A DNA stretch of 64,000 bases, taken from NCBI RefSeq assembly GCF_964204645.1, contig NC_134031.1, forward strand, positions 10,230,001-10,294,000. The letters are read 5' to 3'. The notes beneath the pieces are model-generated. The model searched no databases and was not told the origin of the DNA. It saw only the letters and a list, made by a program, of their open reading frames with translations. Both the position numbers and the translations under genes were made by a program. The DNA comes from Tubulanus polymorphus. Taxonomy: Eukaryota; Animalia; Nemertea. Below, one piece after another: positions 12,823-45,820 of this stretch; positions within the stretch are counted from its first letter, which is position 1, and every line of letters begins with the position of its first letter.

Positions 12823-12829
12823 CTTATTT

Positions 12830-14208: not shown

Positions 14209-16670
14209 TTGATGAGATATAAAGGCGCAATACCATATTCATTCTATAAAAATCATAATGATTTCAATATAACTGAATTATTAAAAGAACAATTTTATGA
14301 TGAATTAAAAAATGAATATGTTAAAGATGAAGTTTATGATAGAACATTGAATATTTGGAATCATTTGAAAATAAAAAATCATGGACAATTAGTAGATTTA
14401 CATGACATAAATATGGCGACGTTGAGGAAAAAAATGTATGGTTTTGAACTACCTGGTGCCGCCATCTTGGAAATCAAATCGCCAAATCGCTCGCCGAGCG
14501 AGTTGGTCGATTTCAAAAATCGATCGAAAAATCGTGTTCGTAAAAACGCCGATCGTGAAATCGATCGCAAAAATCGGTGCTCGTAAATGCGTTCCTACGA
14601 CCGATCGGAAAAATCTGAGAATTATATATCTTTCCAATTTGGATGTCTAAGATTTATAGATTCATATAGATTTTTAAATCGTTCATTAGATAATTTATCA
14701 AAATCATTAGTTGATGATGAATTAAAACTATTAAAACAACACTATCCAAATAATGATTATTTTCAATTAATGAGATATAAAGGCGCAATTCCATATTCAT
14801 TCTATAAAAATCATAATGATTTCAATATAACTGAATTATTAAAAGAACAATTTTATGATGAATTAAAAAATGAATATGTTAAAGATGAAGTTTATGATAG
14901 AACATTGAATATTTGGAATCATTTCAAAATAAAAAATCATGGACAATTAGTAGATTTACATGACATAAATATGGCGACGTTGAGGAAAAAAATATATGGT
15001 TTTGAACTACATGGTGCCGCCATCTTGGAAATCAAATCGCCAAATCGCTCGTTATCGATCGAAAAATCGTGTTCGTTAAAACGCCGATCGTGAAATCGAT
15101 CGCAAAAATCGGTGCTCGTATATGCGTTCCTACGACCGATCGGAAAAATCGGATGCTCGTAAAAACGCCTCAGAGTTCATCTCGTGATACTATTTACGGC
15201 CTTAAAACGTTGTATTATTATACCAATTATTTTCGAATTAATTTAATTTTCAGAGTTACGTTTATACGCAATAAAACTTCGGTGATTTTCTGATTTTTTA
15301 CGAAAGCCAGTAGCACTGCCATCACTTAAGTAAACAAATTCAAATGAAATATTTGTAATAAATTGACGTTTTGATGGGCTCTAAAAAGGCTACGTTTTAG
15401 GATGAAACGGTCGCTGAAACGAAGTTCGTTTTTGCGCGGCGCAAAAACGAGAAATCACCGCGCTAAAACGCGCCAACACGGGCGCTAAAACGAAGTTCGT
15501 TTCTCTGCTCGTTTTGGCGCGTTTCTGCACGGTAAATTTCGTTTTTGCGCCACGCAGAAACGGACGCAGAAACGAAGCAATATATTTTTTTGCATGGTAT
15601 ATTGCACGGAATTTTTTTTAAAAATAGTTTCGGGTGTATTAGGTGATTTCAATGCAAATGATAACCCTGGATATAAGTTATTATATATAGATGCAAATAA
15701 TCTATATGGTTGGGCAATGATGGAGCCTCAGCCTTATGGAGTATTTAAAATTACTGAAGTTTTACAGTATGAAAATAATGATAAATTTGATTGGAAGAAA
15801 AGAATTCTAGATATTGCAGATGATTCAGATACTGGTTACTTCTTTGTTGTAGATTTGGAATATCCTGAAAACATTAAATTTAAATCAAGGAATCTAGCAT
15901 ACTGCCCCGAACATAAAACTGTAACACATGAAGAATTATCAAATTATCAAAAAAGAATTAAACCCGAAAATCGTATTCATACAGAAAAGTTAATGGTAAC
16001 TCAGGAAGATAAATATAATTATGTAGTACATTATAGAATGTTGAAGTTTTATTTGAATCAAGGAATGGTTATAAAAAAAGTACACAGATATATTTCATTC
16101 AGTCAATCTACATAGTTAGAAAAATATATAGATTTCAACACCAAACAGAGAACCAAACAGAGAACTAAAGCTAAAACTGATTTTGAGAAAGATTCCTTCA
16201 AGTTAATGAATAATGCATTCTATGGTAAGACTTGTGAAAATATCAGAAATAGAAATGATATTGAGTTAGTTAGTAATGGTAAAAGGATAAGGCATTTACA
16301 AACATATCCTAAGTTCATAGGTAACAGGATATTTGATGAAAATTTAGCTGCAGTTAAAATAAGAACTTCTATGAAATTTAATAAACCAATTTATGTTGGT
16401 GCTTCAGTTTTCGAAATATCAAAACTATTGATGTATGAATTCTATTATAACGTATTACAACCTCATTTTGGAGAAAAGCATATAGAAATATTATATTTTG
16501 ATACTGACAGTTACATATTAAAGATAAAAACTAATAACATAACAGATGATTTAAAAACATTAAAACATCATTTTGATATCAGTAATTATCCTAAAGATCA
16601 TGAATTGTTTAACAATGATAATAAAAAGGTGCCCGGTAAATTCAAAGATGAATTAGGAGGTGAAGAAATG
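14209..16670 (+). pseudogene. Protein-primed DNA polymerase B of Polinton A, 5'/central fragments, intein-less allele
   Basis: FIDSYRFL, YIDANNLYGWAM, KLMNNAFYGK, NKPIYVG and an uninterrupted YFDTDS (16494-16511). Also contains a stop, a duplication and a foreign insertion. Confidence 0.92.
14959..15627. mobile_element. GC-richer foreign insertion replacing part of pPolB A
   Basis: pPolB homology stops after GQLVDL and resumes at SGVLGD. The insert has AAAAATCG repeats and a palindromic AAACGAAGTTCGTTT/TTTTGCGC tract. Confidence 0.6.
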
Positions 16671-16738
16671 AGTAATTGGAAGATGTGGGTTTCAGATCAG
16701 AGGACGAGAGGACGAGACACCACTCATCACCACAAGTA
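16671..16738 (+). repeat. Left TIR of Polinton B
   Basis: AGTAATTGGAAGATGTGGGTTTCAGATCAGAGGACGAGAGGACGAGACACCACTCATCACCACAAGTA; exact reverse complement of 33189-33256. Confidence 0.96.
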
Positions 16739-17046
16739 ATAATTCAATTGAGTATGAGACACCACTCATCACAGCTAGGCTCTAGTGAGAACGGACGATT
16801 GCTCTGTGACACACATATACAGTGAGTGCGCGTAACAACAGCTGCGCGTGGATAGATCGATACAGTGAGTCTCTACTGAGAACGGTTATTAATGCGTGTG
16901 CTATTACTGTAGTACAGTGATTGCGTGTCAACTGTACCCGGATAAATAGATGCTGTGAGGCTTGGGTGAGAACGGTTAATAGCGTGCTTGTTATATAGGG
17001 GAAGTAATCCCCACTCATCACCACAAGTAATTTGTTTTCCTTATAA

Positions 17047-18772: not shown

Positions 18773-21119
18773 TTAAATAAATTCATATTTAAATGGGTGT
18801 TGTAATCTAAATAGTAATTTTGATCTTTTAATATTTTTCTCCTTATCCATATATTCATTATGTAAATCATGCGGAATAATATCATTTTCCTCAAGTGCAT
18901 TTTTCATCGATTTTCTATCTTTATTGTAGAATAAAACTAGAAATCTAATTTTTTCTCTAAAGTCTTTAACAATTGAATTATATTTTTGATTTAAAACCCA
19001 AGTTGTTATCCCAAAATGTCTGCCAGAAAAAGCTAAATAACATAACTCACTTTCTCTAACTTTTGAATCATGTAGATTAGCACAATCATCTATAATGAAT
19101 AATGTATTTGATCCTTTATAAATATCAATTGCTATTTTAATACAATTATCTAAATTTTCTTTTACTGTTTTAGGATCTAATACAAGAGCCCCAATGGGCA
19201 CAATGGCCAGCCTGTCAGATTTGCTTTTTATAAATGATGTAATCTGTTGGTTATATTTATCAATATACACTCCCTGCTCAATATCATTTACATAGTAAAA
19301 TCGTGTGTTAACACAGACAGCAGGAACGAATGTAATATAGAAATACGAAGTTATTGTATTGTTCAACGCCCCCTGGTGGCCATATACAAAAACCAATGAG
19401 CTTGAAACTCACCAAGATCATAGACCATGTCATGAGCTACAACTTTCCAATTGATTGTGGTAGCAAAATATGCATAGGTACGAATGTAATATAGAAATAC
19501 TAAGTTATTGTATTGTTCAACGCCCCCTGGTGGCCATAAACAAAAACCAATGAGCTCGAAACTCACCTCGATCATAGAACGTCATGAGCTACAACTTTCC
19601 AATTGATTATAGTAGCAAAATATGCTTAAGTATCAATTATGATGTGGAAAAACTTTTTTCCACCTACGAATGAGTACTGATGACTCCAAGATGGCCGCCA
19701 AGTGCGTCGTAATTGCCTGGTCAAAAATACCCTCTCGGATATAAAAGATCCCTTTCCAAAGAATACCCATTACAAATTGCAATGAAACATGGCACACCAT
19801 TAGAAAGCTACAGTACTCAGAATTCAGGCCAAAATTGACATTTTTGGGAACAAAAAAGGTCACAGTACAGCCATCTTGAGCCCGATCGACCCAATTTTTC
19901 TCATGCCGATGGGCCCACGGGGGAAACAAATATATACGAATTATCAAGGTTATTGATAAAAGTGTCTTCAAAATTTCCCTCGAAAACTTCAAAAATGTGT
20001 AAAAAGTGCTGATTTTGGCGAACAACAATGGCTGCCAGTCGGCCATCTTGAATCTGACAGGGCCAGTTTTTGGCCTGAAGATGTGTCTAGGGTAGATACA
20101 CGTATAAACCAAATATCAAGACATTACCTTGAAGCCTCTTCAAAACTTTGGAACTCTCACGAACTATCTAGATGGTTATCTCTCGACCTCAATAGCTTCA
20201 AGACCCATCTCAAAACAACTTTGTTCCATGCAGCATACCATTAACTCTCGGAAAGCGAATTGTATTTAACATTTTTTGGCAGAATAAAATTTGATTGAAT
20301 TTGCAATATGGGCACATGGCTAATTAGCATATCAAGGTCATACACCCGATTTGGTAAAACCATTTTTTTCGCGAATCTTGCGCAATTGTCAAGGATGAAT
20401 TTTCTGTAGAGCAAATAAAAATTCCTCCCAAACACCAAATCAACTAAAGATTTCATAGAAATCGATCTTGAAATACAATTTTAAATCTTAAAATAAAACC
20501 CGGAAGTAAAACAGTAGACGATACCGCGGGTTCACGTGAACACCTGATTTCTGTAAACGAAATGTTGGTTGTGACAAAATTGTTCAGACGGTTTTAGGTG
20601 GTAATAAGTACGGAAACGTAACGACCATGGTCGACTTATTCGATGAAATCAGGCCTATGTGATATCCAAATTTTGACTTTTTTATTCTCCAGACCTCCCT
20701 GATATAGAAATAAAAAATTTTGGTGGTACGAAAGTGCAATCACAGCGCCGACGGGGACAGAGCCGTGTCAGAGATCGATTCGAGAATGGACTACGCTTAA
20801 ATACGTGATTTGTTCGAATATGCCCTCACTTGACAAGCAAAAGAGCCTTTTGTGTGGAAACCATGTCATTTAAATTCGCTCCATTTGTATAGTAATAGGC
20901 TCAGCCTACGGCTGGCCTAATAATAAATTTATTATTTCTAGTAATATTTCTATCATAAGTTTGATTAAATTCATATGTTGGGCAAAATAATACTATATTA
21001 TCAAAATAGTTTTCATAAACAGTTTCTAATAAATTTAATATAAAATAAGTTTTTCCACAATTTGTTATGCCAGATATTAACATATTATGAGGCTCAAATA
21101 TAAATAATTCTTTATTCAT
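18773..21119 (-). pseudogene. Packaging ATPase of Polinton B, split by a 1.7-kb insertion
   Basis: 5' part 21119-20919 (GITNCGKT ... NNKFII); 3' part 19181-18773 (LDPKTVKENLD ... FIIDDC ... SGRHFGI). Confidence 0.9.
19182..20918 (+). mobile_element. Helentron-like non-autonomous (possibly composite) insertion with ~154-bp internal repeats
   Basis: Starts ACAAGAG, ends with the hairpin GGCTCAGCCTACGGCTGGCC, and has no TSD. 19340-19920 matches 58580-59800. Confidence 0.65.
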
Positions 21120-22190
21120 TTATATATTTTTAATTTTACTTGTTAATATCCATTTATTGAATTTATCTGGCCATCCAACCCATTTTACTAAAGAATATTT
21201 TTTTCTTTTAACAGTTTTTGTTTTTAATACTTTTTCAATTTTATATTCTTGTTCTAGATTTTCAGTAGTTACACTTAATTCTTCTTCGTAAAAATACCCA
21301 TCAACTTCTTCACCATCTAAATCTTCTAATTTATAGACATATGGTTTTGTTGTTATTACCTTTTTTATTTTATATATTTCTCTAGTAAAATTTCGATCGT
21401 ATCCCTTGTCAAATATCTTTTTATACTTAGAAATTCTAACATTTTGACAAACTTTAAATTTAGGTTCAGCAAAATCATCTACAAGAAATGCTCCATATAA
21501 ATTATTCCAAACAATTTCAGCATTTTCAGGTTTTCTAGCATCAATAGCTTTCATTCCAATAGAAGAATGATAAGAATTATTATATCCTTCTATCAATTTT
21601 GGTAAAACATCAATCCATTTAAAAGTATTATTTGCTGTAAAATATTTCCACATTCTTGTTCTTAATGTTCTATTAAATCGTTCAACAACTGCTGCTTTAT
21701 CCGATTTTGTTGAAAAATATTTAATATTATGATTGCCTAAGAGTTCATGAACAAGTGAATTATCAAATTCTTTTCCATCATCAAATTGTATTTTTTCTGG
21801 TTTTAGTTTATCATCCGAAAGAAATTTTCTTAAAACATTTGATGTTTGTACAGCATCTTTTCTATAAAGTGGGAAACTCCATACATAACGACTAAAAATA
21901 TCAATTTTATTCAATAACCACCAATAATCATCATTACCTTTCTTAACATTTTTCATATCTATCAAATCTCCTTGCCACTGTTGATCTACATAACTTACCA
22001 TAGTTTTACGAGTTTTATATTTTCTAACAATTTTTTTATGCGTTGTATATGTTGGTTGTTCTAACATAAATTCATTTATATCTTTATATTTAACTAAATT
22101 GTGTGGGATTATCTTATCTAATTTATCTTGTTTTACTTTACTCCATATATTTTTGGTAGAAGAATAAGCAACCGAACTCTCAGGGTTGTA
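21120..22190 (-). pseudogene. rve integrase + chromodomain of Polinton B, extreme N-terminus deleted
   Basis: WQGDLIDM, IQFDDGKEF, AAVVERFNRT and SLVKWVGWPDKFNKWI. The frame extends upstream to YNPESSVAY, where it is fused to the MCP gene. Confidence 0.9.
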
Positions 22191-23280
22191 ATGAATTATC
22201 CTCTGTTGTTCTAAAATCTAACCATAATGCATATTTATTACCGGTATAATAATCAATTTGATTAATATTACAATTTTCAAATGATTTTACTTTTTCATTC
22301 ATAAAATGTTTTCTAATTTCTGGCCATTGATCAATCATTCTCATTCCTTGACAAAATATTTTATTTGCTATTCCTTCGATAGTTATTTCTACTTTTGTTA
22401 TTTCAGGATTATAATAATTATCAACCTTTATTGCGCCATTAGAATATGTTGCAATGGTAAAAAATATTAATATACCTTTAATAGATCTTCTTGGGAAGTT
22501 AATATTCTCATTAATTATTTCATCATTTGCATTAATAGTTACAGTTTTAAATTTATCAATATAATCATATAATAATGAAAATCCTTGATTGTATTGAGTT
22601 TGAATTGTGCTAGCAATATTTTCATTAGTTACTGTGTTATATTCTAAACATATATTCGATAATTTATAACCCATATCTTTAACAACGCTAGATAATAAAA
22701 TTTCATTAACAGGAGCAAATGTTATCTCAAATATAATATCTTCTTGAATTGCGTATTTATATAATGTTGCATTATTATTTATCAATTCAAAGTCTAATGG
22801 GATTTTATATTTGCTTCCATAAATCTTTTTAATCAAATTATCTGTGGCACGAGTTACTATTGCGTCATTAGCTCCTGATCTTAATTTATTATGGTTTTCC
22901 GATTGAATACCCTGAAATATCATATTATTTCTATTTTCTTTAGTTAACCATAAATCTTTATAATGCATAAATTAATTATAATCATCTAATGAGAAAACTG
23001 TTTCTGGACCAATCTTTATAGTTAATTTTTTAATCAAATATCTCCCAACATTATCAACAACATAATTGTTATCATGGCCAGTTACTTTTATATCAGCTGA
23101 TAAATAAATACTATTTAGAACATAAAAAGTATTTTGTGTTAATCTAGGAATTCTAACATATAAAGTTTCATCGGGATTAATATTTGAAGGATTATGTGTA
23201 ATTATATGATGTGATCTTTCTGCTTTAATAGCATTAGATATTCTAGAAATCTTAGAAGGACTTATATAACTCCCACTCAT
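22180..23280 (-). pseudogene. Major capsid protein (double jelly-roll type) of Polinton B; one internal stop, C-terminus deleted
   Basis: HHIITHNPSNI.PDETLYVRIPRL, NVGRYLIKK, YKIPLDFE, NICLEY and YALWLDFRT; colinear with 39057-40303. Confidence 0.82.
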
Positions 23281-23300
23281 TTATTTAACAAAAAAATTAA

Positions 23301-24757
23301 TTATTTATTTTTAATCATATTCACTAGCCCAAAAATAATAGCACTTACAACTGTAATTAAAAATAAAATAATATGTTCAGCAGCAAAGTTAAGAATATTC
23401 CCAGCAGATTTCAATATAAAACCAACAATTGATGCAATAATTCCTGGCAATGCTGTACAAGTCCCTATACAAGTTAAAGCTAATTTAGTATTTTCATGTA
23501 ATTTATTATCATTATCAGTTTTAATTATATCATGTTGAATATCACCGTGTGGGTGCCATACGGCACCATTATCAGTTTTAATATTTTCTGTAGTATTGTA
23601 ATCTTTTATTCTAGAATCATTATGCAATTTAATATTTTTAGTTTTAGTTTATGTTGATTGAAGAAGTTTTTTATTTTTTTCACCTTCCATTAATTTTGGA
23701 GCATCTTTTTATTTATATCATTGAATCCAATTGAATTATTTATTGTTGCAGTTTTAATAAGATTATTATAACCAATTATATTTCCCATCTTTAATACTAA
23801 ATCATTAGAAATAATTAATAGATTAGGTCCTATACAATAATTTAATCTAATATGTGATTTATCTAAATAATTTTGATATCTTACAATGTTTTCTGGAATC
23901 GATCTATTTTTATCATTATGAATGGAATCTTCAAATAATACTTTGAATTGTTTCTGCGCATCAAACGAAGTACTATTATTTCCAACTATTGGTGATCTTG
24001 TTTCAACTTGTGCACCTAAAATACATATCAAATAAGTTCTAATTGATTGATTTATTCTTTGTATAGCAGGTTTTGTAAATCCTTCACTATAAGATTCAAT
24101 AAAATTAATCCATCCATTATTATTATCAATTCTATAATTATGATAAGCTCCAATTCTATGCATATAATCAATTCTTTTTATTTCATACTGTTCACCAACG
24201 CCATGTAATCTACCATGCGCTCTAAAATCGGAATTAATATTTATATTAAATTCATTACATATTTTGTAAAACTTAGATAGATTAATATTATTATCCAATT
24301 CTTTAAAATATTTCGATCCAGGTAAAGGGCATTCTAATTCATTTAATATTATTCTGATTTGAAAATATGTGTGAAATCTAAATATTGTATGAATGAATTT
24401 TAAATCAGAATATTTCAAATTTTTATCTAAGTTATTCAAGTGTTCATGCCAACTTACACCACAACCAGTTGTTGCACAATGAACAGCAAAATTTAATTGA
24501 TTCTGCTAATATTTCATATTAGATTTTACTTTATATATATTATATTCATATCGAGTAAAAGTAACTTCATATGTATTAAATATATTTTCCATTTTAGAAA
24601 TAAAATAGTTTGTTTCAGTAACATAAATTTCTAAATTAATCAATGAAGGCAAAACTAAATTTTTATATATTATTATGTTACTAAAATCTATTGCTGGAAT
24701 ATTATATTTATAATACTCATGTGATTTATTATATTGGAAAGCTTTTGGAAACCCCAT
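23301..24757 (-). pseudogene. Conserved Polinton gene (YxQNQLNFAVxCATTGCG family) fused by deletion to the hydrophobic tail of the next gene
   Basis: Colinear with 36279-37570, then jumps to ALPGIIASIVG (compare 38880-39035). Confidence 0.75.
23541..23569 (-). repeat. 29-bp GC-rich palindromic element, copy 4 (in-frame; absent from the homologue in A)
   Basis: ATGGTGCCGTATGGCACCCACACGGTGAT. B reads KTD-NGAVWHPHGD-IQH; A reads KTD-I-IQH. Confidence 0.85.
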
Positions 24758-24773
24758 TTATATAATAAAAAAA

Positions 24774-25200
24774 TTAATAATTAACTAATTCTTTTAATAA
24801 TTTATCTTGTTCTTCAACTTTTATATGACCATTTAAACTTATTATATAATCTAATGTATTCTTTAATTTATTAATTTCTTTTATATTAGTTTTAACTTTT
24901 TCTTTATTACTTTTTATATTTAATTTTGAACTTATACCAGTTAAAACACTTGAACTTAATCCTAATACACCAATTGATATAGCTAAAGGTGTTAATGGAC
25001 TGAATATTGCTAGAAATGTTATTACAGAACTAATTGTAACCGAACCACTAATAATCAAATAATGTATAATTTAAATATTTTTTCTTTTTAACTTTTAAAT
25101 CATTTTCAAATTCTAATATTTGTTTTTCTAAATATATCTTTAATTTAGTTTTATTTATATCATGAGGAATAATATCAATATTATCAACTTTATCTTCCAT
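24774..25200 (-). pseudogene. Polinton hydrophobic/coiled-coil protein (homologue of 35819-36262)
   Basis: ISGSVTISSVITFLAIFSPLTPLAISIGVLG; frameshifted; TAAATG start. Confidence 0.7.
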
Positions 25201-25219
25201 TTATTTAGAAAAAAAATTA

Positions 25220-25642
25220 CTAATTAGTAAATTTATATGCTACAAATATAACAATAACTGTTCCACCTAAAATCCAAATTATTTCATATTTCTGTTGTTC
25301 TTTACTTGGGGTATAATAATCTGATAATTTTGGTTTGTATAGATGTAATTTTTCTTTATTTGTTACCGCGTTATATAAACTCATTGCATCATCAACTAAT
25401 TGAAAATCTCTATGTGAAATCTTCTGATCATATAATTCCTTGTTAATATAATCCATATAGTTTTGTCGTTTTTCTCTGTATTCTTCTGCTGCTTTATTAT
25501 ATTTCTCTAATGCTAAATTATGTCTTCTTTGTTCTCCTAATGAACTATCTTTATCAATATGCTTAAATAAATAACCGCCACCAGTAAATGCTAAAGCGTT
25601 AACAATTGCTGATCCTATAATAGTTATAATTGCAGAAGCCAT
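25220..25642 (-). CDS. Conserved Polinton protein with hydrophobic N- and C-termini
   Basis: MASAIITIIGSAIVNALAFTGGGYLF ... IIWILGGTVIVIFVAY; homologue at 35371. Confidence 0.8.
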   Translation of the reverse strand: MASAIITIIGSAIVNALAFTGGGYLFKHIDKDSSLGEQRRHNLALEKYNKAAEEYREKRQNYMDYINKELYDQKISHRDFQLVDDAMSLYNAVTNKEKLHLYKPKLSDYYTPSKEQQKYEIIWILGGTVIVIFVAYKFTN

Positions 25643-25666
25643 TTATTTAGTAAAATAATTACACAT

Positions 25667-25885
25667 TTATATGGGAGGAATATATTTTTGTTTTTCCAAA
25701 TAATCAATAGTTAAATTAGAAAAAGTAACTGCTAATGTTAATTTTAAGATATCATTTATATCAAATCTATCAACATTAACACTTCCCATTTTGAATACTT
25801 TTTTTAATACCATTGAATAACCAACAGTTCCAACTGATAGTAATGCTCCATTATATAATCCAGTTATTATCCACTTATCACTCAT
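25667..25885 (-). CDS. Small conserved Polinton hydrophobic protein
   Basis: 72-aa ORF ending DYLEKQKYIPP; homologue at 35128-35354. Confidence 0.75.
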   Translation of the reverse strand: MSDKWIITGLYNGALLSVGTVGYSMVLKKVFKMGSVNVDRFDINDILKLTLAVTFSNLTIDYLEKQKYIPPI

Positions 25886-25899
25886 TTATTTATCAAAAA

Positions 25900-26242
25900 A
25901 ATTACTATCTTCAAAATATTTAGTTATCTTAGTGATGATTAATTCAACATTTATTTCATTACTAGTTTCATTTGTATATATTTCAATTATTATTTTTTTA
26001 ATATCATCGATGATAAAATCTTCATCTAATTCATAAAATCTTTAAGATTCTCTAATTAAATTAGTAATATTTTCTACATTAAAAGTTTCTTTATCTATTG
26101 TTGTTTCATACTCAAATGTTGTTTCATTAGAAAATGCAATATTTTTAATATGTGTTATTACATCATTAATGTTGAATTTCATTTCTTTCTCACGTTTAAA
26201 ATCAAACCCAAAACATATACTCGGTCCAACAGTTATATTCAT
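25900..26242 (-). pseudogene. Polinton hypothetical protein (homologue of 34785-35120), internal stop
   Basis: Shared MNITVGPSICFGFDFK start. Confidence 0.7.
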
Positions 26243-26258
26243 TTATATAATGAAAAAA

Positions 26259-27005
26259 TTACTCTCTACATCTTATAACTAATTCATAAATTACAGGAAA
26301 GTTATTCAAATCAATTAAATATCCATTATGATTTCTTATTTCTAATTTAAAATTATTAAATTTAGGAATGCAAGGTTTAAAATCACATTCTGTTAAATTA
26401 TAATTTATTTGAGTTCCAAATTGTTTAACATTTTTAGCGGTAAAATATTTCGTATACTAGAACTACAAATTGTTTCTTTAGTTGCTTCGAAAGTTTTTGT
26501 AGGATCAATTAAATTGCAATAAATATAAAAATGCGTAAAAGGTATTATATTTGGCTTAGTTTAAACATTTAAATACAGAATATTTGGATTAACTCCTAGC
26601 TAATGGTTTTCTTACTGCGAATTTATATTGTTCATTAGTTAAATTTATTCCTATTTTATTAGTACTATCAATTTTATTAAATTTAATATTAAATTTGGAA
26701 TCACCTCTAATTTGTATTCGTGCTTTTCTATTAATTTCTTGAGCTAATGTTTCTAAATTATATAATCCTGGTGTTAGCATAAGATCAAACCATTTATGAT
26801 TATTTCTATTAAAAATTAAAAAGGTTCTATGTTCATCAGTTTTATCCGTTATATTATAAAAAGAATTACATAAACTTATATTAACTAATTTTAAATCTAC
26901 ACAATTCTTAAATTCTCTATCTAATTGTACTAATTAATTATGTGATTTATAATTTGTAAGTCTTCTTGAATCAACAAATATTCTGTATTCTTTTAATTCA
27001 CCCAT
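26259..27005 (-). pseudogene. Minor capsid (penton-like) protein of Polinton B
   Basis: YRIFVDSR, LCNSFYNI, PGLYN, FYIYCNLI and LEIRNHNGYLIDLN; disrupted. Confidence 0.7.
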
Positions 27006-27073
27006 TATTTATAACACAAAAAAATTACCGCTCATCACTAAAAATTAATTTTAATAAAATTTTTCCTTAATAA

Positions 27074-27709: not shown

Positions 27710-28377
27710 ATTATAAACGAAAATGTCCACAATGTAGTTATGCGACCTTTAGACAAGAAGGTACTGTGTTATTTTGTAATGAATGTGGATGGCAAAAGAA
27801 TTCATTGGGTGAAGAAAAAACTAGAAATTTTCTCATAGATCCAAAATTAAATTATCTTGATGAAATTTTTAAAATATTTTCTATAGAAGATCATACACCA
27901 GAATATATGCAATGGCCTGAAAAAATGAAAATAATAGAAAATAAAAATGGTGAAATAACTAAAAAAGATATTATAAAAACAATTATTCCGTCAACATTTA
28001 ACACAAAACAAAAGAAAATGTATTTATATTTATTATTTAACGATTATTATGAAAAACCTAAATTAACAGAAGATATGAAAAATATAAAAAAAATATTCAA
28101 ACAAATATTAATGTATCATTTGGAAAATAGAATAACAGATTCAATTAATCATGAATTCTTTTTAAATAAGATTGTAAATTATTTAAACATCGATATTATA
28201 ATTCCATTTGACGAATTAACAAACAAAAAGAAACAAAGAGAGCGAGATGAAATGTGGAACAAGATAGAACTTTATTTAAATGAGAAAAATGAAATGGAAG
28301 AAGAACCTAAACAATTAAATGAAAATGAAGAAGCCAATAGTGATTTCGAGTATGATGATATTGATTTTATGTTTTAA
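27697..28377 (+). CDS. VLTF3-like (poxvirus A2-type late transcription factor) protein; start codon apparently damaged
   Basis: The open frame from 27697 gives the zinc ribbon KCPQC-x13-CNECG, then KLNYLDEIF, PKLTEDMKNIKKIFKQI, SINHEFFLNKIVNYL and KKQRERDEMWNKI. This matches the VLTF3 pattern by eye. Confidence 0.65.
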   Translation, partial: RLPINYKRKCPQCSYATFRQEGTVLFCNECGWQKNSLGEEKTRNFLIDPKLNYLDEIFKIFSIEDHTPEYMQWPEKMKIIENKNGEITKKDIIKTIIPSTFNTKQKKMYLYLLFNDYYEKPKLTEDMKNIKKIFKQILMYHLENRITDSINHEFFLNKIVNYLNIDIIIPFDELTNKKKQRERDEMWNKIELYLNEKNEMEEEPKQLNENEEANSDFEYDDIDFMF

Positions 28378-31300
28378 TGACCATAAGGTAATGTTTTTAT
28401 ACCATCATCTAAAATATGCCTTTTATCATCAAATGGATTCAAACTAGTTTTTTCAACTTCATTAATGTACATCTCGTGATCTTCTGATCTTAAACAATTC
28501 ATTTTGTGTTTCATTACAATTGAGTTATATAAACACTTTATATAATCTTGAAATTCTATATGTTTATCAACCACATGTTTTGTTATTCCTTTTAACTTTT
28601 TAGCTTCATGATCTTTTGCTCTATAACTATACATTTTACTTCTTATCCCAACAAATTCAATCATTTCATCACCCCCTAATTCATCTTTAAACTTACCAGG
28701 AATCTTTTTATTATCATTGCTAAATAGTTCATGATCTTTGGGATAATTGCTAAAATCAAAATGATGTTTTAATGTTTTTAAGTCTTTTGTTATGTCATTT
28801 GTCTTGATTTTTAGTATGTAGGCGTCCGTATTTTTGGCTATTAATGGAAATCCACAGTTAAATGTACCATCTTAAGTTGATAAATCATAAACATAGTCAG
28901 TTGGGTTATATATTTCAAATAAATCTTTAACTTCTTCTGTTACTTCTTTTTCTACATGCCTTAAATTAAAACAATTTGGTTTAGATTTAATTAATTCTAT
29001 ATTCATATTAAATCCTAATGAACTGCATAATATATTTAATCCTGATATAGCAACTTTTCCTTTTTGAGCTAAAGATATTGTTTTGAAACTTTTTGAACCA
29101 TCTGCTGCATAGAATCCAATGAAGAACCATTTTCTTAAATTATTTTTTGCATTCAATACATAGTCTGGAACTATCTTTTCTTAAGTTGAAGTATTACTTT
29201 TAACTATTGCATGGATATAGAATTCGTTATTATATTTTGTAGCAAAATCTTTAGGGTTATTTACAAGTATTCTATAAACTGCTGTTGATATCATATGATC
29301 CACGATTCTAAATGTTTTATGTGAATAAACTTCTTTACAGAATTTCTTTATTCTTTCTAATAATTTCAAATCTTGATTGCATAAATACCAGCAATATTGA
29401 GTGCGATTAACATAATTATACACACCTGCTGAACCATCTCCCATGAAAAATCCTTTGTTAAAATATTCTTTTTCTTCTAATGTTTCGGGTTCTATGTTAT
29501 AAATATTATCAATTATTTCATCAAATGACATATGATTCATTCTTTGGAAAAATCTTTTATGTAATAATTCATCTCCAATTTTTATATTAGTTGGTTTTAT
29601 TTCATCACCATTTCGTTTAATTAAACTATGATCTTCTGTAACATCAACAAACCCTAATTTAGTTCTAACTCTATAGATTTTCTTATTTGTTTTATGCCTA
29701 ATAATATTCTTTAATTTTCTCCATCCATTTCTTGTCCAAACATCCATTAAACCATTTATTTGTATTCTTTTTAATATAACTGCTGTTAAATAATCTTCAA
29801 ATCTTTTATTTCCTAAATGTCTAGGACTTGATTGTAAATGTCTTAATCGTTCAGAATTATTTACTAATTCAATATCATTTCTATTTCTAATATTTTCACA
29901 TGTTTTACCATAAAAACTATTATTCATTAATTTGAAGAAATCTTTTTCAAAATCTGTTTTTGATATGGTTCTCTGTTGAGTATTGAAATCTATATATTTT
30001 TCTAACCACTTCGATTGATTAAATTCAATATATCTATGTACTTTCTTTAATTTCATTCCTTGTTTTAGATAAAATTTTAACATTCTATAATGAACAATAT
30101 AATTGTATTTATTATTTTGAGTAAGTATTAATTTTTCTGTAAAAACATGATCTTTCGGTTTTATTTTTTTTCTGGTATTCACTTAAATAACTATCATCTA
30201 CAGTTAAATGTTCTGGGCAATAAGGTAAGTTTCTTGTTTTAAACTTTATATTTTCAGGATATTCTAAATCAACTACAAAGAAATAACCAATTGGTGCTTC
30301 ATCTTCTAAACTCATAATTGCGCTTTCCCAATTAGTTTTATCATCATTTTCAACTTCTGTTTATATAAAATTTTTATATGGTTGAGGTTGCATCATTGCC
30401 CAACCATATAAATTATTGGCATCAATATATAATAATTTATATTCATCATTTGCTTTAAAATACCTATCTCCCATAACACCACTAATTCCACCTCTAATTG
30501 ATTTTTCAAATAATAAAACCATATCTGGTTCTTTTAATAAATCTAATTCTACATTTGTATATTTTAAACCACATTGCCAGGTTAAACCAGGGCTAGAGTA
30601 GCAATAACAAGGATCAACATTAAAATGATTCAAATTAACTTCTCTAAATTTTTCAAATATGTCAGCCAATATCATAACATCTGATTTTAAATATAAATCA
30701 ACTAATTCACCATGATTTTTCATCTTAAAATGATTCAAAATATTTAATGTTCTATTAAACACTTCGTCTTTCACATACTCCTCTTTTAATTGATCATAAA
30801 ATTGATCTTTTAATAATTCTGTTACATTAAAATCATTGTGTGTTTTATAAAATGAATAAGGAATTGCACCTTTATATCTCAATAATTTAAAATCTTGTTC
30901 ATTTGGATAATAATATCGAGTTATAACAAAATCATTATCAACTAAACTTTTTGATAAATTATCTAATGAACTTGCTAGAAATCTATAAGAATCTAAAAAT
31001 CTAATGCAACCAAATTGAAATAAAATATAATTTTCAGATGTTTTAGCTAATAGTTTAAAATCATATTTTCTTACATTTACACCATTCATAGCATTATATT
31101 CTTCTATTTCTTGATTAATTGCGCCCAATTTTCCCGATAATTGTTTTATAAATAGATGAGTATCATAGCCTGATAAATTATGAAATAATATTGGTACGAA
31201 ATTAACTTTCTTAGCTTGTAAATTGCAATCTTCATGAGCAGCTCCACGATATTTTGAATTTAAATGATCATGATCTCTAACTTTTTTATCAAATGAATAA

Positions 31301-33171
31301 AAACGTTTTTCACAATAACAACAATGAGTTGCATAATTAAAATCAATTTCATCTTCTTTTGTCATAACTATTCTTTTATTTTTGTTTAATAATTTTGCAA
31401 AATCACTTTCTAATTCAATCATTTTATCACAAAAATCATTAACTACATTTTCACCTCTAAAAGAAATATATTGACTTTCATATAATTCAGGATAATTTGA
31501 TTTTATATAAATTCCATAAGCAGCAGCTCTTTGATGAACTTTTTTAATTGTATTTATAATTGGTGGGTCTTGTATTGTGTCTTCATTTAATTCATATCCT
31601 TTATCCATTGAGTTTAATAATTGCTTTTTGTTATATATTTCTTTTCTATCTTGATCAGTTAATTCTTTATTCAACGATTCAAAATCCCCATGAATTACAA
31701 ATGGAACAATATTCTTAAATTTATGATTAGTAAATTTCAATTTATAATCTTTTTTTGTTGGCATTATTAATTTACAAAAATCTTTATTATCACATAATTC
31801 TTTATGTTTTAATAATGTATTCTCAGTCATAAATTTAGATAAGCATTTTCTACATAGATAAATTTTACGATGATGATCACTTTCTGTTCTAAAGAATAAA
31901 TCAATTTGTTTTAACCACATATAATGTTCATTTTCATCTTTTTTGTAATATAACAAATCTATAACATTTTCATCATCATAATATTCTGTTAAATATAAAG
32001 CTTCTAATGTATAATCTTTAATATTTTCACCTTTTGTCTTTGGTAATTGCATTAATTCGAATACATTTATTTTTAAATTATTAACTTTTTCTATTTTAGG
32101 AATCATTTTTATAGTTACTGGATATTGATCAATTTTATATAATGTTTCATATTTCCGGTAATCTGTTATTCTACAAACATTTTCCTGAGTTGGATGTAAG
32201 CAACTAATAATTGACCATAGAAAACATTTATTATCTTCATTTTGAATATTTATTACTGATTTCGTTGTAAATGGTAATTTAATATAAGATGATGCTTTAA
32301 TATCCTTTTCTGTTGTAAAGTTTGAATCATTTTTAAACATTTTATTACTTTTTGATGTTTTATTTCTTTTTGTATTATAAACATTTAAACCTAAATATAT
32401 AATTTCATTCAATGTTAAGCCAGAACCCTCAAAATATCTTTCTTCAATATGACGTTTAAATTCATTAAATATTTTTTCTAACTTCTCTTTTATTTGTGTT
32501 TTTGAAATTATTTCTTCAGAGTGTGTTTGAATATTATAATTCATTTTTTCTTCTGACTTTATAAAACTTACTTTCCCAGAGATACTAATTTTTGGATATT
32601 CAAGATCTGTTATCAAATCTAGTATTTTTTCTATTATTTCATTAAATGTACTATAATCTTCTATTGTTGTACCTTTAAAAAATCTAAATATAATAGCTGC
32701 AGGACCAATTTTACTACGTAATGTTTCTAATATTTCAATTGTATCTTTTATTTCTAGTGAATCAATATAATTTCTAACATTTTCCATGTAAGGTTTATTT
32801 GAAATGGATTTAGTTTTTGAAGTTGGTTTTTTTACTTTTTGAGGTTTATCATCAAAATAATCTTTTCCTAAAACATTATTACTCAAATTTTGATGGTGTT
32901 TTTGTGATTCGAGATGTCTATTATAATTCCTTTTTACTATAAATTCATTACAAACTTCACATTTTATTTCATCCACATTCATATTTTCTAATTGTTCTTT
33001 TCTTTCATTGGAATTTTCTGGAGTTTCAAAATCTATTACATTTTTTATATGATTTGCAGTTTTTTCATGTCGTGTGTTATTAGATGTATCGACGTATTTT
33101 TTACAATATTGGCAATAATATTGATTTTTATTAACATTATTATTTTCTGGCTGGTGTTCATTCTCCCCCAT
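28374..33171 (-). pseudogene. Protein-primed DNA polymerase B of Polinton B with N-terminal zinc fingers, endonuclease-VII-like insert and intein
   Basis: ExoI HGDFESL, ExoII FHNLSGYD, ExoIII YLKSDV, PolA YIDANNLYG, PolB KLMNNSFYGK and C-terminal SLNPFDDKR; frameshifts at about 30360 and 30165. Confidence 0.95.
28830..29765 (-). mobile_element. Intein remnant with LAGLIDADG homing-endonuclease domain at pPolB motif C
   Basis: Block B VDVTEDHSL, block C GFFMGDGS, block E GFYAADGS, blocks F/G YVYDLST*DGTFNCGFPLIAKN followed by extein TDAYILKIK. It lies in a single frame with two stops; block A is missing. Confidence 0.9.
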
Positions 33172-34009: not shown

Positions 34010-34026
34010 GAAAATATGTAAAATAA

Positions 34027-34760
34027 GTGGCGGAATTAAAAGAATATAGAATATTTGTTGATTCAAGAAGACTTACAAGTTATAAATCACATAATTTACT
34101 AGTACAATTAGATAGGGAATACAAGAATTGTGTAGATTTAAAATTAGTAAATGTAAGTTTATGTAACTCCTTTTATAATATATCGGATAAAAGTATTGAA
34201 CATAGAGTCTTTTTTATTCATGACAGAAATAAGAATAGATGGTTTCATCTTTATCTTAAACCAGGATTATATAATTTAGAAACATTAGCTCAAGAAATTA
34301 ATAAAAGAGCACGCTTAAAAATGGGTGCATCTGCTGGATTTGGATTAAGACTTATTAAAAGTGATAGCTCTGATAAAATAAGAATAAAATTAGGCAATGA
34401 AGATCAACATCAATTTCTAGCTAAACTGTTAGGAATTAACACAGATGAAAGGATACGTAATGCTGATGCTACACCAAATATAATACCTTTTACACACTTT
34501 TATATTTATTGCAATTTAATTGATCCTACAAAGACATTTGAAGCAACTAAAGATACAATTTGTAATTCTGGTTTATTGAATATTTTACATTGAAGAATGT
34601 TAAAGAATTTGGAACACAAATAAATCATGATTTAGCTGAGTGCGATTTCAAACCATGCATTCCTCAATTTAATAATTTTTGATTAGAAATTAGAAATCAT
34701 AATGGATACTTAATTGATTTGAATAACATTCCTGTGATATATGAATTAGTTATAAGATGA
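34027..34760 (+). pseudogene. Minor capsid (penton-like) protein of Polinton A
   Basis: Colinear with 26259-27005; frameshift near 34590. Confidence 0.72.
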
Positions 34761-34784
34761 AAAGAGTATTTTTTTGATATATAA

Positions 34785-37700
34785 ATGAATATAACTGTTG
34801 GACCGAGTATATGTTTTGGGTTTGATTTTAAACATGGTAAAGAAATGAGAATTAAACTAAATGATGTAATTACTGATATTAAAAGTAAATCATTTAACAA
34901 TGCATCTATGATTAATAAAGAAAATTATAATATAGAAAAAGTAATTGATTTAATCAAAACATCTTTAAAATATTATGAATTAAATGAAGATGGAATTATT
35001 GATGATATTAAAAACATATTATCTAAAATATATGATAATCATAAAAGTAGTAATGAAATAAATGTTGAATTAATCATAAAAAAGACAACTAAATATTTTG
35101 AAAATGGTAATTTTTTTTGATAAATAAATGAGTGATAATAAGTGGATAATAACTGGATTATAAAATGGAGCATTATTATCAGTGGGAACTGTTGGTTATA
35201 CAATGGTATTAAAAAAAGTATTTAGAATGGGTAGTATTAATGTTGATAGATTTGATATAAATGATATCTTAAAATCAACGTTAGCAGTTACTTTATCGAA
35301 ATTAACAGTTGATTATTTGGAAAAACAAAAATATATTCCTCCTATAAATACGTAACTTTTTATTGAATAAATGGCATCTGCAGTAATAACTATAATAGGA
35401 TCGGCAATTGTTAACGCTTTAGCATTTACTGGTGGCGGGTATTTATTTAAGCATATTGATAAAAATGGTTCATTATCAGAACAGAAAAGACATAATTTAG
35501 CATTAGAAAATATAATAAAGCAGCGGAAGAATACAGAGAAAAAAGACAAAACTACATGGATTATATTAACAAAGAATTATATGATACGAAGATTTCACAT
35601 AAAGATTTACAATCAGTCGATGATGCAATGAGTTTATATAACGCAGTAACAAATAAAGAAAAATTACATCTATATAAACCTCAATTATCGAATTATTATA
35701 CCCCAAGTAATGAACAGAAGAAATATGAAATAATTTGGATTTTAGTTTGAACAGTTATTGTTATATTTGTTGCATATAAATTTACTAATTAAATATATAT
35801 ATTATTTTTGTTAAATAAATGGATGATAAAGTTGATAATATTGATATCATTCCTCATGATATCAGTAAAACTAAATTAAAATCATATTTGGAAAAACAAA
35901 TATTAGAATTTAAAAATGATTTAAAAGTTAAAAGGAACAAATATTTAAAAAGTATAATTATATATTATATATATATATATTATTTTATTATTAGTGGTTC
36001 AGTTACAATTAGTTCTGTAATAACATTTTAGCAATATTCTCACCATTAACACCTTTAGCTATATCAATTGGTGTGTTAGGCTTAAGTTCAAGTGTTTTAA
36101 CCGGAATAAGTTCAAAATTAAATGTAAAAAGTAATAAAGAAAAAATTAAATCTAATACAAAAGAAATTAATAAATTAAAAAATACATTAGATTATATTAT
36201 TAGTTTAAATGGTAACAGTTGAAGAACAAGATAAATTATTAAAAGAATTAATAAATTATTAATCTTTTTATTATATAAATGGGGTTTCCAAAAGCTTTCC
36301 AATATAATAAATCAATTAAACATAATATTCCTGCAATAGATTATAAAAAAAAATTACATAAAAAATTTAGTTTTCAATTCATTAGTTAATTTAGAAATTT
36401 ATATTACTGAAACACAGTTTTTTATTACTAAAATGGAAAATATATTTAATACATATGAAGTTACTTTTACTCGAGATGAATATCATATATATATAAAGTT
36501 ATATCTAATATGAAATATTGGCAGAATCAATTAAATTTTGCTGTTTATTGTGCAACGACAGGGTGTGGTATAAGTTGGAACAATCATCTTAATAACTTAG
36601 ATAAAAATTTGTCTTATTCAGATTTAAAATTCATTCATACAATATTTAGATTTCACACATATTTTCAAATCAGAATTATATTAAATGAATTAGAATGCCC
36701 TTTGCCTGGATCTAAATATTTTAAAGAATTGGATAATAATATTAATCTAAGTTTTATAAAATTTGTAATGAATTTAATATAAATACTAATACTAATTTTA
36801 GAGCGCATGGTAAATTGCAAGGTATTGGTGAACAGTATGAAATAAAAAGAATTGATTATATGCATAGAATTTCAGCTTATCATAATTATAAAATTGATAA
36901 TAATAATGGTTGGATTAATTTCATTTTAGAAAATAGTGAAGGTTTTACAAAATCAGGTATACAAAGAATAAATCAATCTATAAGAATATATTTAATTTGT
37001 ATATTAGGTGCACAAGTTGGAACAAGATCCCCAATAGTTGGAAATGATAGTACTTCATTTGATACACAGAAATAATTTAAAGTTTTATTTGAAGATTCTA
37101 TTCATAATGATAAAAATAGATCGATTCCAGAAAACATTGTAACATATCAAAATTATTTAGATAAATCACAGATTAGATTAAATCATTGTATAGGCCCTAA
37201 TTTATTAATTATTTCTTATGATTTAGTTTTAAAAATGGGAAATATAATTGGTTATGATAATCTAATTAAGACTGCAACAATAAATAATTCATTTGGATTA
37301 AATGATATGAATAAAAAGATTATCGCTGCTCCAAAATTAATGGAAGGTGAAAAAAAAATAAAAAACATATTCAATCAACTGAAACTAAAACAAAGAGTAT
37401 TGAATTGAATAATGATTCTAAACCGGATCACAATACATCAGAAAATATAAAAACTGATATTATTCAACATGAAATAATAAAACCCAATAATGATAATAAA
37501 TCACATGAAAATGCTAAATTAGCTATAACTTGTATAGGAATTGTAATAGGAGGAATATTATATTTTAAATTTCAATTTTCTTTATTATGTAAATGGATGT
37601 AGAAGGTGGAGAAGATTATGAAATGGAAGACATGGGAAATAATAATGATGGGTATATTGATGATTATAATGATGCTGAAACTAATATTGATAATGATGAT

Positions 37701-39035
37701 GAAACAGCATATAGTTCTAATTTAGCAGATAGTGGTTCTAAAGCTCCATCAACAAAGGAGTTTGATAGAAGAACTAAATCGAGAATAAATCCTGAAAATG
37801 AAAATCCAGATTTAGTAAAACAAAATTTAGAATATAATGAATATGTGTATCATTTCAAACCTATATTTGAAAGATCTGGATATAATATCAATGAGAGAGG
37901 TGCTAGAAATTTAGTAACAGAATTAAAACTTTTAGATGGTGAATATTATTATCGTTTGAAAGATGATTATTATATTGATATCACTAATAAACGTGAAAAT
38001 AAAATATTAGCAGAATCAACTTTGAGAAAATTAGAAACATCTTGAATTAAAAGAATAAGTAATAGTAATGAAATAGAAAATGTTGCCGACACAGAAATAA
38101 ATAAAAAGAGTATTTAAACAAAGAATAAATGAATCATTTGAAATATTAAAAAATAATTTAGAAACAGAAACAAGTTCTGAACAGAATATAACTTCCAAAA
38201 CTAGTTAACTTAAATCAAATAGAGTTCCAATTGAAAAACTTTTACCGAATGGATTAATTGATGCAACAGATCAACAATTAGAAGATTTAAATATATTTTC
38301 TGATAAAGCAATTAGAGAAATGATTAGTATATGAAATGAAGCTGATAAATTTGCCCATGACAAAAGTATAAGAGATTTTAAAATTAGAACTTTAGAAAAA
38401 GATAGAACTGATAAAATTAAAGAAATAGAACAATTAAAATTGGATAGAGATAATATAGTTATTGAAGAAATTGAATTTTGAAAAAGAAATGCATATTTAG
38501 AAAAAGAAAAAGATGATTTAGAATATAACATAGAATTACAGAAAGAAGAAATCAAATTATTATTAAAATCAAATGATTATAATATTAATAGATTAAAAGT
38601 TATTTTTAAAGATTTGTTGATAAAACCAAATTCTGATATATCATTGAAAGATAGAATAAAATTATTATTTTTAAGTTATAAGGTATAACAATTCTTTCAA
38701 TTGTAACAGCTGTAACTATGATATTTACAACAATAGGTTTAGCTATATCAAATGCTTTAAAATCTACACCTACTCCCAATAAACTGGGTAAACCTCCAAA
38801 TAATAATAATTCTATACAAGAAAAAGATGGTTTAAAAAAATTAGTAAAATATCTATGGGAATTATCTAAAAAATCTGCTGCAGCTTTACCCGGAGTTATA
38901 GCATCAATTGTTGGTTTTGTATTAAAATCTGCTGGAAATATTATTAACTTTGCTGCTGAACATATAATCTTATTTTTAATTTCTGTTGTAAGTGCAATTA
39001 TTTTTGGATTAGTGAATATGATCAAAAATAAATAA
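34785..39035 (+). pseudogene. Cluster of six conserved Polinton genes (starts 34785, 35128, 35371, 35819, 36279, 37593), mostly disrupted
   Basis: Same order and high similarity to B genes at 26242-23301; each starts at TAAATG; many stops and frameshifts. Confidence 0.8.
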
Positions 39036-39056
39036 TCAATTTTTTTCCTTAAATAC

Positions 39057-40303
39057 ATGAGTGGGAGTTACATAAATCCTTCTAAGAATTCTAGAAAATC
39101 TAATGCTATTAAGGCAGAAAGATCTCATCATATAATTACATGTACTCATAATCCATCAAATATTAATCCTGATGAAACTTTATATGTTAGAATTCCTCGA
39201 TTAACACAAAATACTTCTTATGTTCCAAATAGTATTCATTAATCAGCTGATATAAAAGTAACTGGCCATGTTTATAACTATTTTGTTGATAATGTTGGAA
39301 GATATTTGATAAAGAAATTAACTATAAAGATTGGCTCTGAAACAGTTTTCTCATTAGATGATTAAAATTTATTTACGCATTATAAAGATTTATGGTTAAC
39401 AAAAGAAAACAGAAACAATATGTTATTTCAAGGCATCCAATCCTTAAATCAAAATAAATTAAGATCAGAAGCTAATGGCGCAATAGTAACTCGTACCGCA
39501 GATAATTTGATTAAAAAGATTTATGGAAGCAAATATAAAATTCTATTAGATTTTGAATTGATAGATAATAATGCGCCTTTTAACATGCAATTCAAGAAGA
39601 TATTATATTCGAAATAACATTCGCTCCTGTTAATGAAATTTTGCTATCTAGTGTTGTTAAAGATATGGGATATAAATTATCGAATATGTTTAGAATATGA
39701 TACAGTAACTGATGAAAATATTTCAAGCATAATTCAAACTCAATACAATCAAGGATTTTCATTATTATATGATTGCATTGATAAATTTAAAACTGTAACC
39801 ATTAATGCAAATGAATAAATAATTAATGAGAATATTAACTTCCCAAGAAGATCTATTAAAAGTATATTAATATTTTTTACCATTGCAACATATTCTTATG
39901 GCGCAATAAATGTTGATAATTATTATAATCCTGAAATATCAAAGGTAGAAATAACTATCGAAGGTATAGCAAATAAAATATTTTGCCAGGGAATGAGAAT
40001 GATTGATCAATGGCCAGAAATTAGAAAACATTTTATGAATGAAAAAAATAAATCATCTGAAAATTGTAATATTATCAAATTGATTATTATATCGGTAATA
40101 TATACGCATAATGGTTAGATTTTAGAACAACTGAAGATAATTTATTACATGGATCTGGGAAAAAATTACAGAACACTTAAGATGGGATACAATTATTCAT
40201 GAAAAAGAAAAAAGGGAGTTTAAATTATAAAATGCACATTTATATCATATCTGACGCGTAATTAAATATTGTAAATTCTCAATTGAATAGTGTTATGTAT
40301 TAA
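39057..40303 (+). pseudogene. Major capsid protein of Polinton A (full length, disrupted)
   Basis: Colinear with 22180-23280, plus the C-terminal LHGSGKKLQN...GIQL...MHIYIISDA. Confidence 0.82.
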
Positions 40304-45209: not shown

Positions 45210-45820
45210 TTATTTTATAAATTTATATTCATAGGGAAATTGAAGCCTCAGTAATAATTTTGAACCTTTATTACTTTTTAATTTATTCATATATCCATCA
45301 TGTAACTCAGTAGGTATAATTTGATTTTCTTCCAATGATTGTTGCATAGATTTTCTATCTTTATTGTAGAATAAAACTAAAAATATCATGTTTTCCCTAA
45401 AATCTTTAACAATTGAATTATATTTTTGATTTAAAACCCATGTTGTTATCCCAAAATGTCTCCCAGAGAAAGCTAGATAGCATAGTTCACTTTCTCGTAT
45501 TTTTGAATCATGTAAATTAGCACAATCATCTATGATGAATAATGTATTTGATTCTTTGTAAATATCAATTGCTATTTTAATACAATTATCTAAATTTTCT
45601 TTTACTGTTTTAGGATTTAATATAATAAACTTTTTTATCTTAACTATATCTCTATTATATGTTTTATTCATTTCATAGGTAGGGCAGAATAATATTATAT
45701 TATCAAAATGATTTTTATAAATAGTTTCTAACAAATCTAATACAAAATGTGTTTTACCACAGTTGGTTACTCCAGTAACTAACATTTTATGCGGTTCAAA
45801 TATAAATAAATCTTTATCAT
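45210..45820 (-). CDS. Packaging ATPase of fragment C (1-bp loss just after the start)
   Basis: GVTNCGKT, FIIDDC, SGRHFGI and a complete C-terminus. Confidence 0.88.

Follow-up and report, generated by a model that had tools for sequence, protein, structure and literature searches.

Results and Discussion

The Locus and its Polinton Array

The window, i.e., the whole stretch of 64,000 nucleotides that was analysed, holds from about 11 to 47 kb a fragmented array of Polinton copies (Table 1). A DNA polymerase of family B that is protein-primed (pPolB), an rve integrase and an A32-type packaging ATPase are all present, which is the gene set used for assignment to the Polintons/Mavericks (polintoviruses, adintoviruses); the host named by the first-pass annotation, a protein-primed Polinton polymerase, is supported. 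The ORFs at 22180–23280 and 26589–26933 are mere candidates for the double jelly-roll capsid genes, with a putative resemblance to hexon and penton, and no Pfam or NCBIfam match was obtained for those of these candidates that were scanned. Seven ORFs of the window were without an exact match in the protein collection, and a search of Rfam gave no match.

Two polymerase copies are of concern here: copy B, which is split by an intein remnant, and its sister copy A, in which the same site is empty. Copy B is flanked by a long inverted duplication (22187–27010 and 34021–40149, 85–90% identical), and a C-terminal polymerase fragment on the plus strand, starting at about 33257, lies head to head with it; the arrangement may have arisen from two copies that diverged, or else it is a single mirror-image element of old age. 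A polymerase fragment of copy A is tandemly duplicated at 14155–15153 with a spacing of 558 bp, each unit being followed by the same non-Polinton repeat.

Table 1. Features of the intein remnant and of the surrounding Polinton array, with positions in the window.
Feature	Position	Strand	Basis or remark
Intein remnant, Hint and double LAGLIDADG (dodecapeptide) homing endonuclease	28830..29765	-	motifs in one frame; profile and protein matches
GWRKLK motif	29726-29709	-	same frame as other intein motifs
Block B, TxxH, reading TEDH	29628..29639	-	translated frame
LAGLIDADG helix 1, GFFMGDG	29433..29453	-	translated frame
LAGLIDADG helix 2, GFYAADG	29097..29117	-	translated frame and PF14528 match
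Block F, VYD	28892-28884	-	translated frame
Intein C-terminus, ..IAKN, followed by +1 TDAY	ends at 28830; TDAY from 28829	-	translated frame
C-terminal splice junction Asn/Thr in polymerase motif C, 28830/28829	28828..28832	-	
In-frame stop, endonuclease domain	29181..29183	-	absent from most other copies
In-frame stop, block F	28872..28874	-	absent from other copies read
Deletion junction, upstream extein fused to intein residue ~42	29760..29770	-	comparison with P0001
Copy B polymerase, protein-primed PolB, split by intein	28374..33171	-	tblastn with P0001; HNH motif; P0001 has PF03175
Copy A, sister polymerase fragment, empty motif-C site YFD/TDS, junction 16502/16503	15630..16739	+	tblastn, translation
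rve integrase with chromodomain (Polinton hallmark)	21120..22217	-	profile search; second copy 11710-12828
A32-type packaging ATPase fragment	18773..19408	-	profile search; more copies 11256-11717, 45210-45848
Repeat family of the host, with a 154-bp unit and its flank, within Polinton array	19322..19916		same family in host-like flank, 58.6-59.8 and 63.8-64 kb

The Intein Remnant of Copy B

Block B and the two LAGLIDADG helices, which the first-pass annotation had pointed out, were found together with the other intein motifs of Table 1 in one frame of the minus strand. Three positions of block B, i.e., E, D and H, are invariant in 75 aligned inteins and the T is conserved in at least 90% of them. 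The residue before the terminal Asn is Lys, as in the intein of Mimivirus, and copy B reads TDA just after the intein. The terminal Asn and the +1 Thr had been said to fall where the sister copy has an uninterrupted junction, and the YFD/TDSY junction of copy A agrees with this. In profile searches, which had been proposed as a check, the broken pieces from the window matched the Pfam family Intein_splicing with an E-value of 6.5e-5 and the family LAGLIDADG_3 with one of 0.0024, in both cases below the curated cut-offs. The N-terminal piece matched the intact intein-bearing polymerase P0001 with 61% identity at 97% coverage (E = 7e-70), and the inteins of copy B and P0001 were likewise 61% identical over 315 amino acids, when X was placed at the stops. 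Such matches are not to be put down to chance.

Copy B had also been described as dead, with two in-frame stops and with block A and upstream extein deleted, and its decay goes further, since an additional stop (30363–30361) and a frameshift (near 30165) were found upstream. In comparison with P0001, an in-frame deletion at about 29766 has removed about 47 residues of the extein and about 41 of the intein, including block A; the DNA similarity of copy B to copy A stops at 29768. With block A deleted and two stops in the frame, this copy is unable to splice, and the loss of Ser1 together with block A makes it a remnant. The segment is confirmed as a canonical intein in a state of decay at motif C of a Polinton polymerase, and it has decayed along with its element.

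The Host Genome

An intronless ORF with a HECT domain (1965–3863) is enclosed by inverted arrays of a 144-bp repeat (1–586 and 7841–8704); we see in this a probable transposon, the terminal repeats of which are satellite-like and which carries a ubiquitin ligase domain. The HECT ORF is on record as part of a contig of 14,301,023 bases (14.3 Mb). The plus strand contains, at 47105–49186, a Gypsy-like element in decay, of which the gag is SCAN-like, and the segment 53048–55514 on the minus strand is probably a tyrosine-recombinase (DIRS-like) retroelement. For the HECT ORF, the three best clusters of look-alikes were mostly from Chordata and the fourth mostly from Basidiomycota (score 0.91), while the sole named homologue was a protein of a beetle. 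The best look-alikes of the gag-like ORF at 47.5 kb were clusters mostly from Mollusca, one of them with a SCAN domain. On the basis of these transposon ORFs the host genome is in all likelihood that of an animal, and the animal-type genome of the first-pass annotation is supported as probable.

The host could instead be a fungus or a protist with Polintons, in which case the novelty of the intein would be limited to its occurrence in a protein-primed polymerase and would not concern the genomes of Metazoa. The window is without a host housekeeping gene, transposons cross between kingdoms, and one cluster of HECT look-alikes is fungal; we regard this possibility as unlikely, in view of the predominance of Chordata, Mollusca and a beetle among the matches. 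The motif TAGGCCTA occurs six times in the flanks, versus 0.25 occurrences expected (24-fold enriched), and not at all in the Polinton array; such enrichment, a putative trait of echinoderms, would also speak against a fungus or protist. The literature searched offered nothing usable on TAGGCCTA in echinoderms.

The G+C content is 26% in the array versus 39% in the flanks, which could suggest that the Polinton segment came into the assembly as a contaminant, or by formation of a chimera, from a free virus or a symbiont. This is very improbable, since a host repeat family is nested within the array, the Polinton copies are decayed and fragmented, and a separate sample from another study with the same species label contains many diverged copies. 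The occurrence of one repeat family in both the array and the flank is evidence of chromosomal residence.

Copies in Reads of the Same Species Label

About half of the words sampled were contained in four runs of one study with a single species label. The separate sample with this label was a run of raw Illumina reads (X7), of which about 12% was used. A total of 8457 reads were placed on the locus, and their identity classes ranged from over 99% down to less than 90%. The mean depth was 203 over 8 bins of the intein versus 409 over 18 bins of the extein, with two bins outside of the gene and two bins straddling junctions left out; thus, about half of the related polymerase copies carry the intein. 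If a genome size of 100 to 1500 Mb is assumed, the depth would correspond to between 10 and 157 copies, the absolute number depending on this assumed size. At the stop in block F, all 175 covering reads differed from the window copy, and so did 192 of 194 at the stop in the endonuclease domain; contigs of the runs X1 and X2 showed loose ends at 29766. The breaks of the window copy are therefore not common to most copies. The reads show only that the breaks are not shared; a complete intact intein copy was not seen in this material from the species of the window. Run X6 gave only short pieces of low depth and was left out of the results.

Intact Relatives in Polinton Polymerases

A search for intact copies with YxD/S junctions had been suggested together with the claim that the intein occupies the pol-c (motif C) site. 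With the window piece and P0001 as queries, 13 clusters (at 90% identity) of Polinton polymerases with the insert were obtained, 7 of them with one junction and 6 with both junctions in the form D/S...N/TDS, all at motif C: P0001, P0003/P0109, P0005, P0123, P0134 and P0135. In each of the six complete inteins, Ser1 follows directly after the first Asp of motif C, TEDH and the Asp of block F are present, and the terminal Asn is followed by TDS, i.e., by a +1 Thr; the Asp is kept in both LAGLIDADG helices in all six families. The penultimate residue is His in three, Lys in two (Mimivirus also has Lys) and Ser in one. The LAGLIDADG profile PF14528 was found in five of five aligned inteins; the scores for the Hint domain were mostly just under the curated cut-off of Pfam. 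TIGR01445 passed its cut-off for P0123 and P0109, was just under it for P0001 and P0005, and did not match P0134.

An AlphaFold model of the P0001 intein, based on an alignment of 75 rows, had a pLDDT of 93 and a pTM of 0.92 (pLDDT 40 from the single sequence). Its top five matches in the PDB were all inteins with homing endonucleases, the best being TliVMA (E = 9.5e-19); matches comprised TliVMA, PI-PkoII, PhoVMA and PI-PfuI, and the endonuclease has an I-DmoI-like fold. The predicted Hint fold, the N-terminal Ser, TxxH, the Asp of block F, the terminal Asn and the +1 Thr together are the characters of a class 1 intein.

Among the viral contig and genome loci examined, no junction of Polinton type was detected, and a scan of metagenomes gave one such junction (L024). 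The best 150 of the 50% representatives contained no further Polinton family, except for one fragment.

Polinton polymerases are known to bear fused nuclease domains: Jeong et al. (PMC10748475) described HNH and VSR nuclease insertions in pPolB2 in 2023, and Krupovic et al. (PMC11071308) proposed in 2024 that invasions by inteins gave rise to insertions of this type. The polymerase of the window itself has an HNH motif in addition to the nuclease of its intein. The insert might accordingly be a further nuclease domain of this kind, fused into the polymerase and not splicing, and the Hint scores, being mostly just under the cut-off, could be read in this sense. We rejected this notion as hardly credible, since the catalytic YxDTDS motif is interrupted by the insert, which has a Hint fold as well as the complete set of splicing residues, and precisely empty alleles are known; the HNH and VSR domains, in contrast, are fused outside of motif C and are without a Hint domain. 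A Hedgehog-type or other non-splicing Hint domain of animals was also rejected, since the Hint domain here encloses a LAGLIDADG endonuclease, is situated in the middle of a polymerase and groups with viral pol-c inteins. The preferred reading, which is very probably correct, is that of a canonical LAGLIDADG intein at motif C of a Polinton pPolB on a likely animal chromosome, with intact copies that are predicted to splice and likely to home.

Comparison with Known Inteins

The pol-c site is common to the PolB inteins of Mimivirus and archaea (Ogata et al. 2005, PMC549080), as the first-pass annotation had stated. The Mimivirus intein is similar to those of the Polintons in its Y-x-D/T-D-S site, in the residues Ser1, TxxH, Asn and +1 Thr, in the double LAGLIDADG endonuclease and in the length of about 340–355 amino acids (PMC549080); its identity with the six intact Polinton inteins is 37–43%. 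The hosts are different: the Mimivirus intein resides in the RNA-primed PolB of a giant virus that infects amoebae lytically, whereas the Polinton inteins reside in a protein-primed PolB, which cannot be aligned by BLAST with that of Mimivirus and which belongs to an integrated multicopy element in a probable animal genome. The best named viral matches of the P0001 intein were DNA polymerases of giant viruses. Archaeal pol-c PolB inteins have the same YGD/S..N/TDS site, and solved inteins (TliVMA 7qsu/7qss, PI-PkoII 2cw7, PI-PfuI 1dq3) have the same Hint and LAGLIDADG fold; archaeal inteins differ in their sequences (best segments mostly 22–32% over the full length), in their cellular prokaryotic hosts and in their position as an outgroup in the tree.

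DNA polymerase inteins are the commonest viral inteins, with hosts among the Phycodnaviridae, Iridoviridae and Mimiviridae (Green et al. 2018, PMC5784728). The first-pass annotation held that inteins are considered absent from metazoan genes; absence is stated by Green et al. for metazoan genomes, and no Polinton inteins are among those listed in their census. An insect iridovirus was already known to have an intein (PMC549080), so that an intein-bearing animal virus is nothing new.

Phylogeny and Origin

A tree that includes giant-virus PolB inteins had been recommended. It was constructed with IQ-TREE from 40 rows, 16 rows of an earlier set of 47 having been dropped, and was rooted on nine archaeal pol-c inteins. 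The six Polinton rows formed one clade (98/100), which was situated within a clade (99/98) together with 23 inteins from giant-virus-type PolB and topoisomerase II; two phage-type inteins remained outside. It had been inferred earlier that the intein jumped from the RNA-primed PolB of a giant virus into the Polinton polymerase. The shared clade fits this proposal, which is the most economical one, but the direction of transfer does not follow from the tree, since a topology in which the giant-virus inteins make up a single sister clade was not rejected (p-AU 0.464); a giant-virus donor is thus the simplest reading and not a result.

A recent and direct jump from a giant virus into the window copy was rejected, since intein identity tracks extein identity. 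Among polymerases of the HNH type this parallel (61/59/59% for the window and P0001, 76/80/79% for P0134 and P0135) suggests an old capture followed by long co-divergence; the capture looks ancient, and the window copy belongs to a long-resident lineage of Polinton inteins. P0005 has no HNH motif, and a stretch in it is, judged by its motif, putatively VSR-like. Its exteins barely align with those of the others, yet its intein shares 40–46% identity with theirs and clusters with the inteins of P0001 and the window (93/76), which implies at least one jump between polymerase classes.

Related inteins were noticed in other proteins. P0094, P0099 and P0102 are phage-type family B polymerases with inteins at xxD/TDG, which form a long branch outside of the Polinton and giant-virus clade. 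Their position next to the Polinton clade in quick trees (fasttree) was discounted as a long-branch placement, since they fell outside when archaeal outgroups were included. P0008, P0044, P0045 and P0063, probably from giant viruses, have the same intein lineage at DQD/TDG in type II topoisomerases, P0008 with a second intein site in this enzyme as well; this speaks for a change of host gene, to a site that is similarly flanked by Asp. Contigs L183 and L184 of two Bacteroidales MAGs carry a giant-virus-type PolB with this intein, and their junction flanks are identical to those of viral loci; this is probably contamination from binning.

Full and Empty Alleles

Precise in-frame insertion, with the corresponding empty allele at hand, was seen in the P0123 family, in P0112 versus P0109, and in copies A and B of the window. 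The cluster of P0123 has 136 members; among the 15 listed, which come from contigs of 57 kb to 1.0 Mb, seven were full, five empty and three uninformative fragments. The five empty alleles are 94–98% identical to P0123 and lack exactly residues 1042–1387 (346 amino acids). In the cluster of P0003 (121 members), five of the 15 listed had the intein junction, nine were without a junction match, and one, P0112, is empty, belongs to the P0109 family and has the same flanks as P0109 itself. In the empty alleles P0240–P0245, motif C itself varies (YTD/CDS, YFD/TDA, YGD/TDA).

The empty P0123-type alleles differ from P0123 in 8 of 18 residues at positions -8 to +10 around the insertion site versus 14–56 of about 1100–1170 residues elsewhere; the six other full copies of the family show no differences from P0123 in this segment. 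Fisher tests gave p-values from 1e-10 to 2e-6, which are indicative only and overstate independence, since the segment was selected post hoc and the five empty alleles are related. P0007, which belongs to another cluster, has the same C-flank as the full alleles of the P0123 family. The confined divergence fits either the survival of empty sites that resist cleavage or the import of flanks together with the intein; going by the aligned alleles, both would be signatures of homing.

An alternative explanation would be that the intein splices, but has lost the ability to home, so that it descends vertically with its Polinton, and empty alleles either never had it or lost it. The parallel identities of inteins and exteins in HNH-type polymerases are consistent with this, as is the similar G+C content of intein (25%) and exteins (21–27%) in the window. 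We consider it rather improbable, since all six families have retained the acidic residues of both LAGLIDADG helices, full and empty alleles are found side by side at 94–99% extein identity, divergence is confined to the insertion site in the P0123 family, and the intein has crossed into a polymerase class with barely alignable exteins (P0005). Continued homing remains our preferred explanation.

Proposed Mechanism

From established intein chemistry, splicing of an intact copy would start with an acyl shift at Ser1, helped by the His of block B, followed by transesterification to the +1 Thr; cyclisation of the terminal Asn would then release the intein, and Y-x-D would be rejoined to T-D-S. 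Since the insert interrupts a catalytic motif, the polymerase can be active only after precise splicing, and the splicing residues should therefore be kept under selection. The endonuclease likely cuts the empty motif-C DNA of co-resident or co-infecting Polintons, whereupon repair would copy the intein into the break; dozens of Polinton copies per nucleus would provide a standing supply of targets. Presumably, the large eukaryotic DNA viruses, with their pool of pol-c inteins, were the source of a single acquisition at an early time, after which the lineage would have diverged with the HNH-type polymerases of Polintons, with at least one jump into a second polymerase class (P0005).

Significance

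In the literature searched, which did not extend to most subscription journals or to any supplements, no earlier report of a Hint-type intein in a Polinton polymerase was found. The words intein, LAGLIDADG and Hint are absent from the main text of Jeong et al. 2023 (PMC10748475), and the word intein from the main texts of Starrett et al. 2021 (PMC8502044) and of a coral polintovirus survey (PMC11131425); in the parts covered of PMC12220804, PMC5718144, PMC3671162, PMC9939771 and PMC4104785, inteins are treated only in general or in giant viruses or archaea. Within this literature, an intein is a novelty in the protein-primed polymerase that an integrated element encodes. The intein is of a known kind; what is new is the class of its host protein and, likely, the genomic setting, with signs of homing. 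It sits in an endogenous virus-like element and not in a gene of the host animal.

On balance, we lean towards the existence of a living lineage of homing inteins in animal germ lines, i.e., of a parasite of endogenous Polintons which undergoes splicing in the cells of animals, invades polymerase genes with an empty site among the numerous copies of a single nucleus, drives the appearance of resistant alleles of the target site and has crossed between polymerase classes. If this is true, the rule of intein-free metazoan genomes would end, and gene flow between giant viruses and Polintons would be on record; the intein could serve as a marker of past contacts between Polintons and large DNA viruses. 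A conserved lineage of Polinton inteins makes several questions testable, e.g., protein splicing in animal cells from chromosomal templates, or the invasion cycle of a homing endonuclease among the transposon copies of one genome, for which the families with full and empty alleles at 94–99% identity represent a ready natural experiment. It could also be clarified whether the polymerases of Polintons are still expressed and selected, since an intein at motif C should stay functional only if the polymerase is used.
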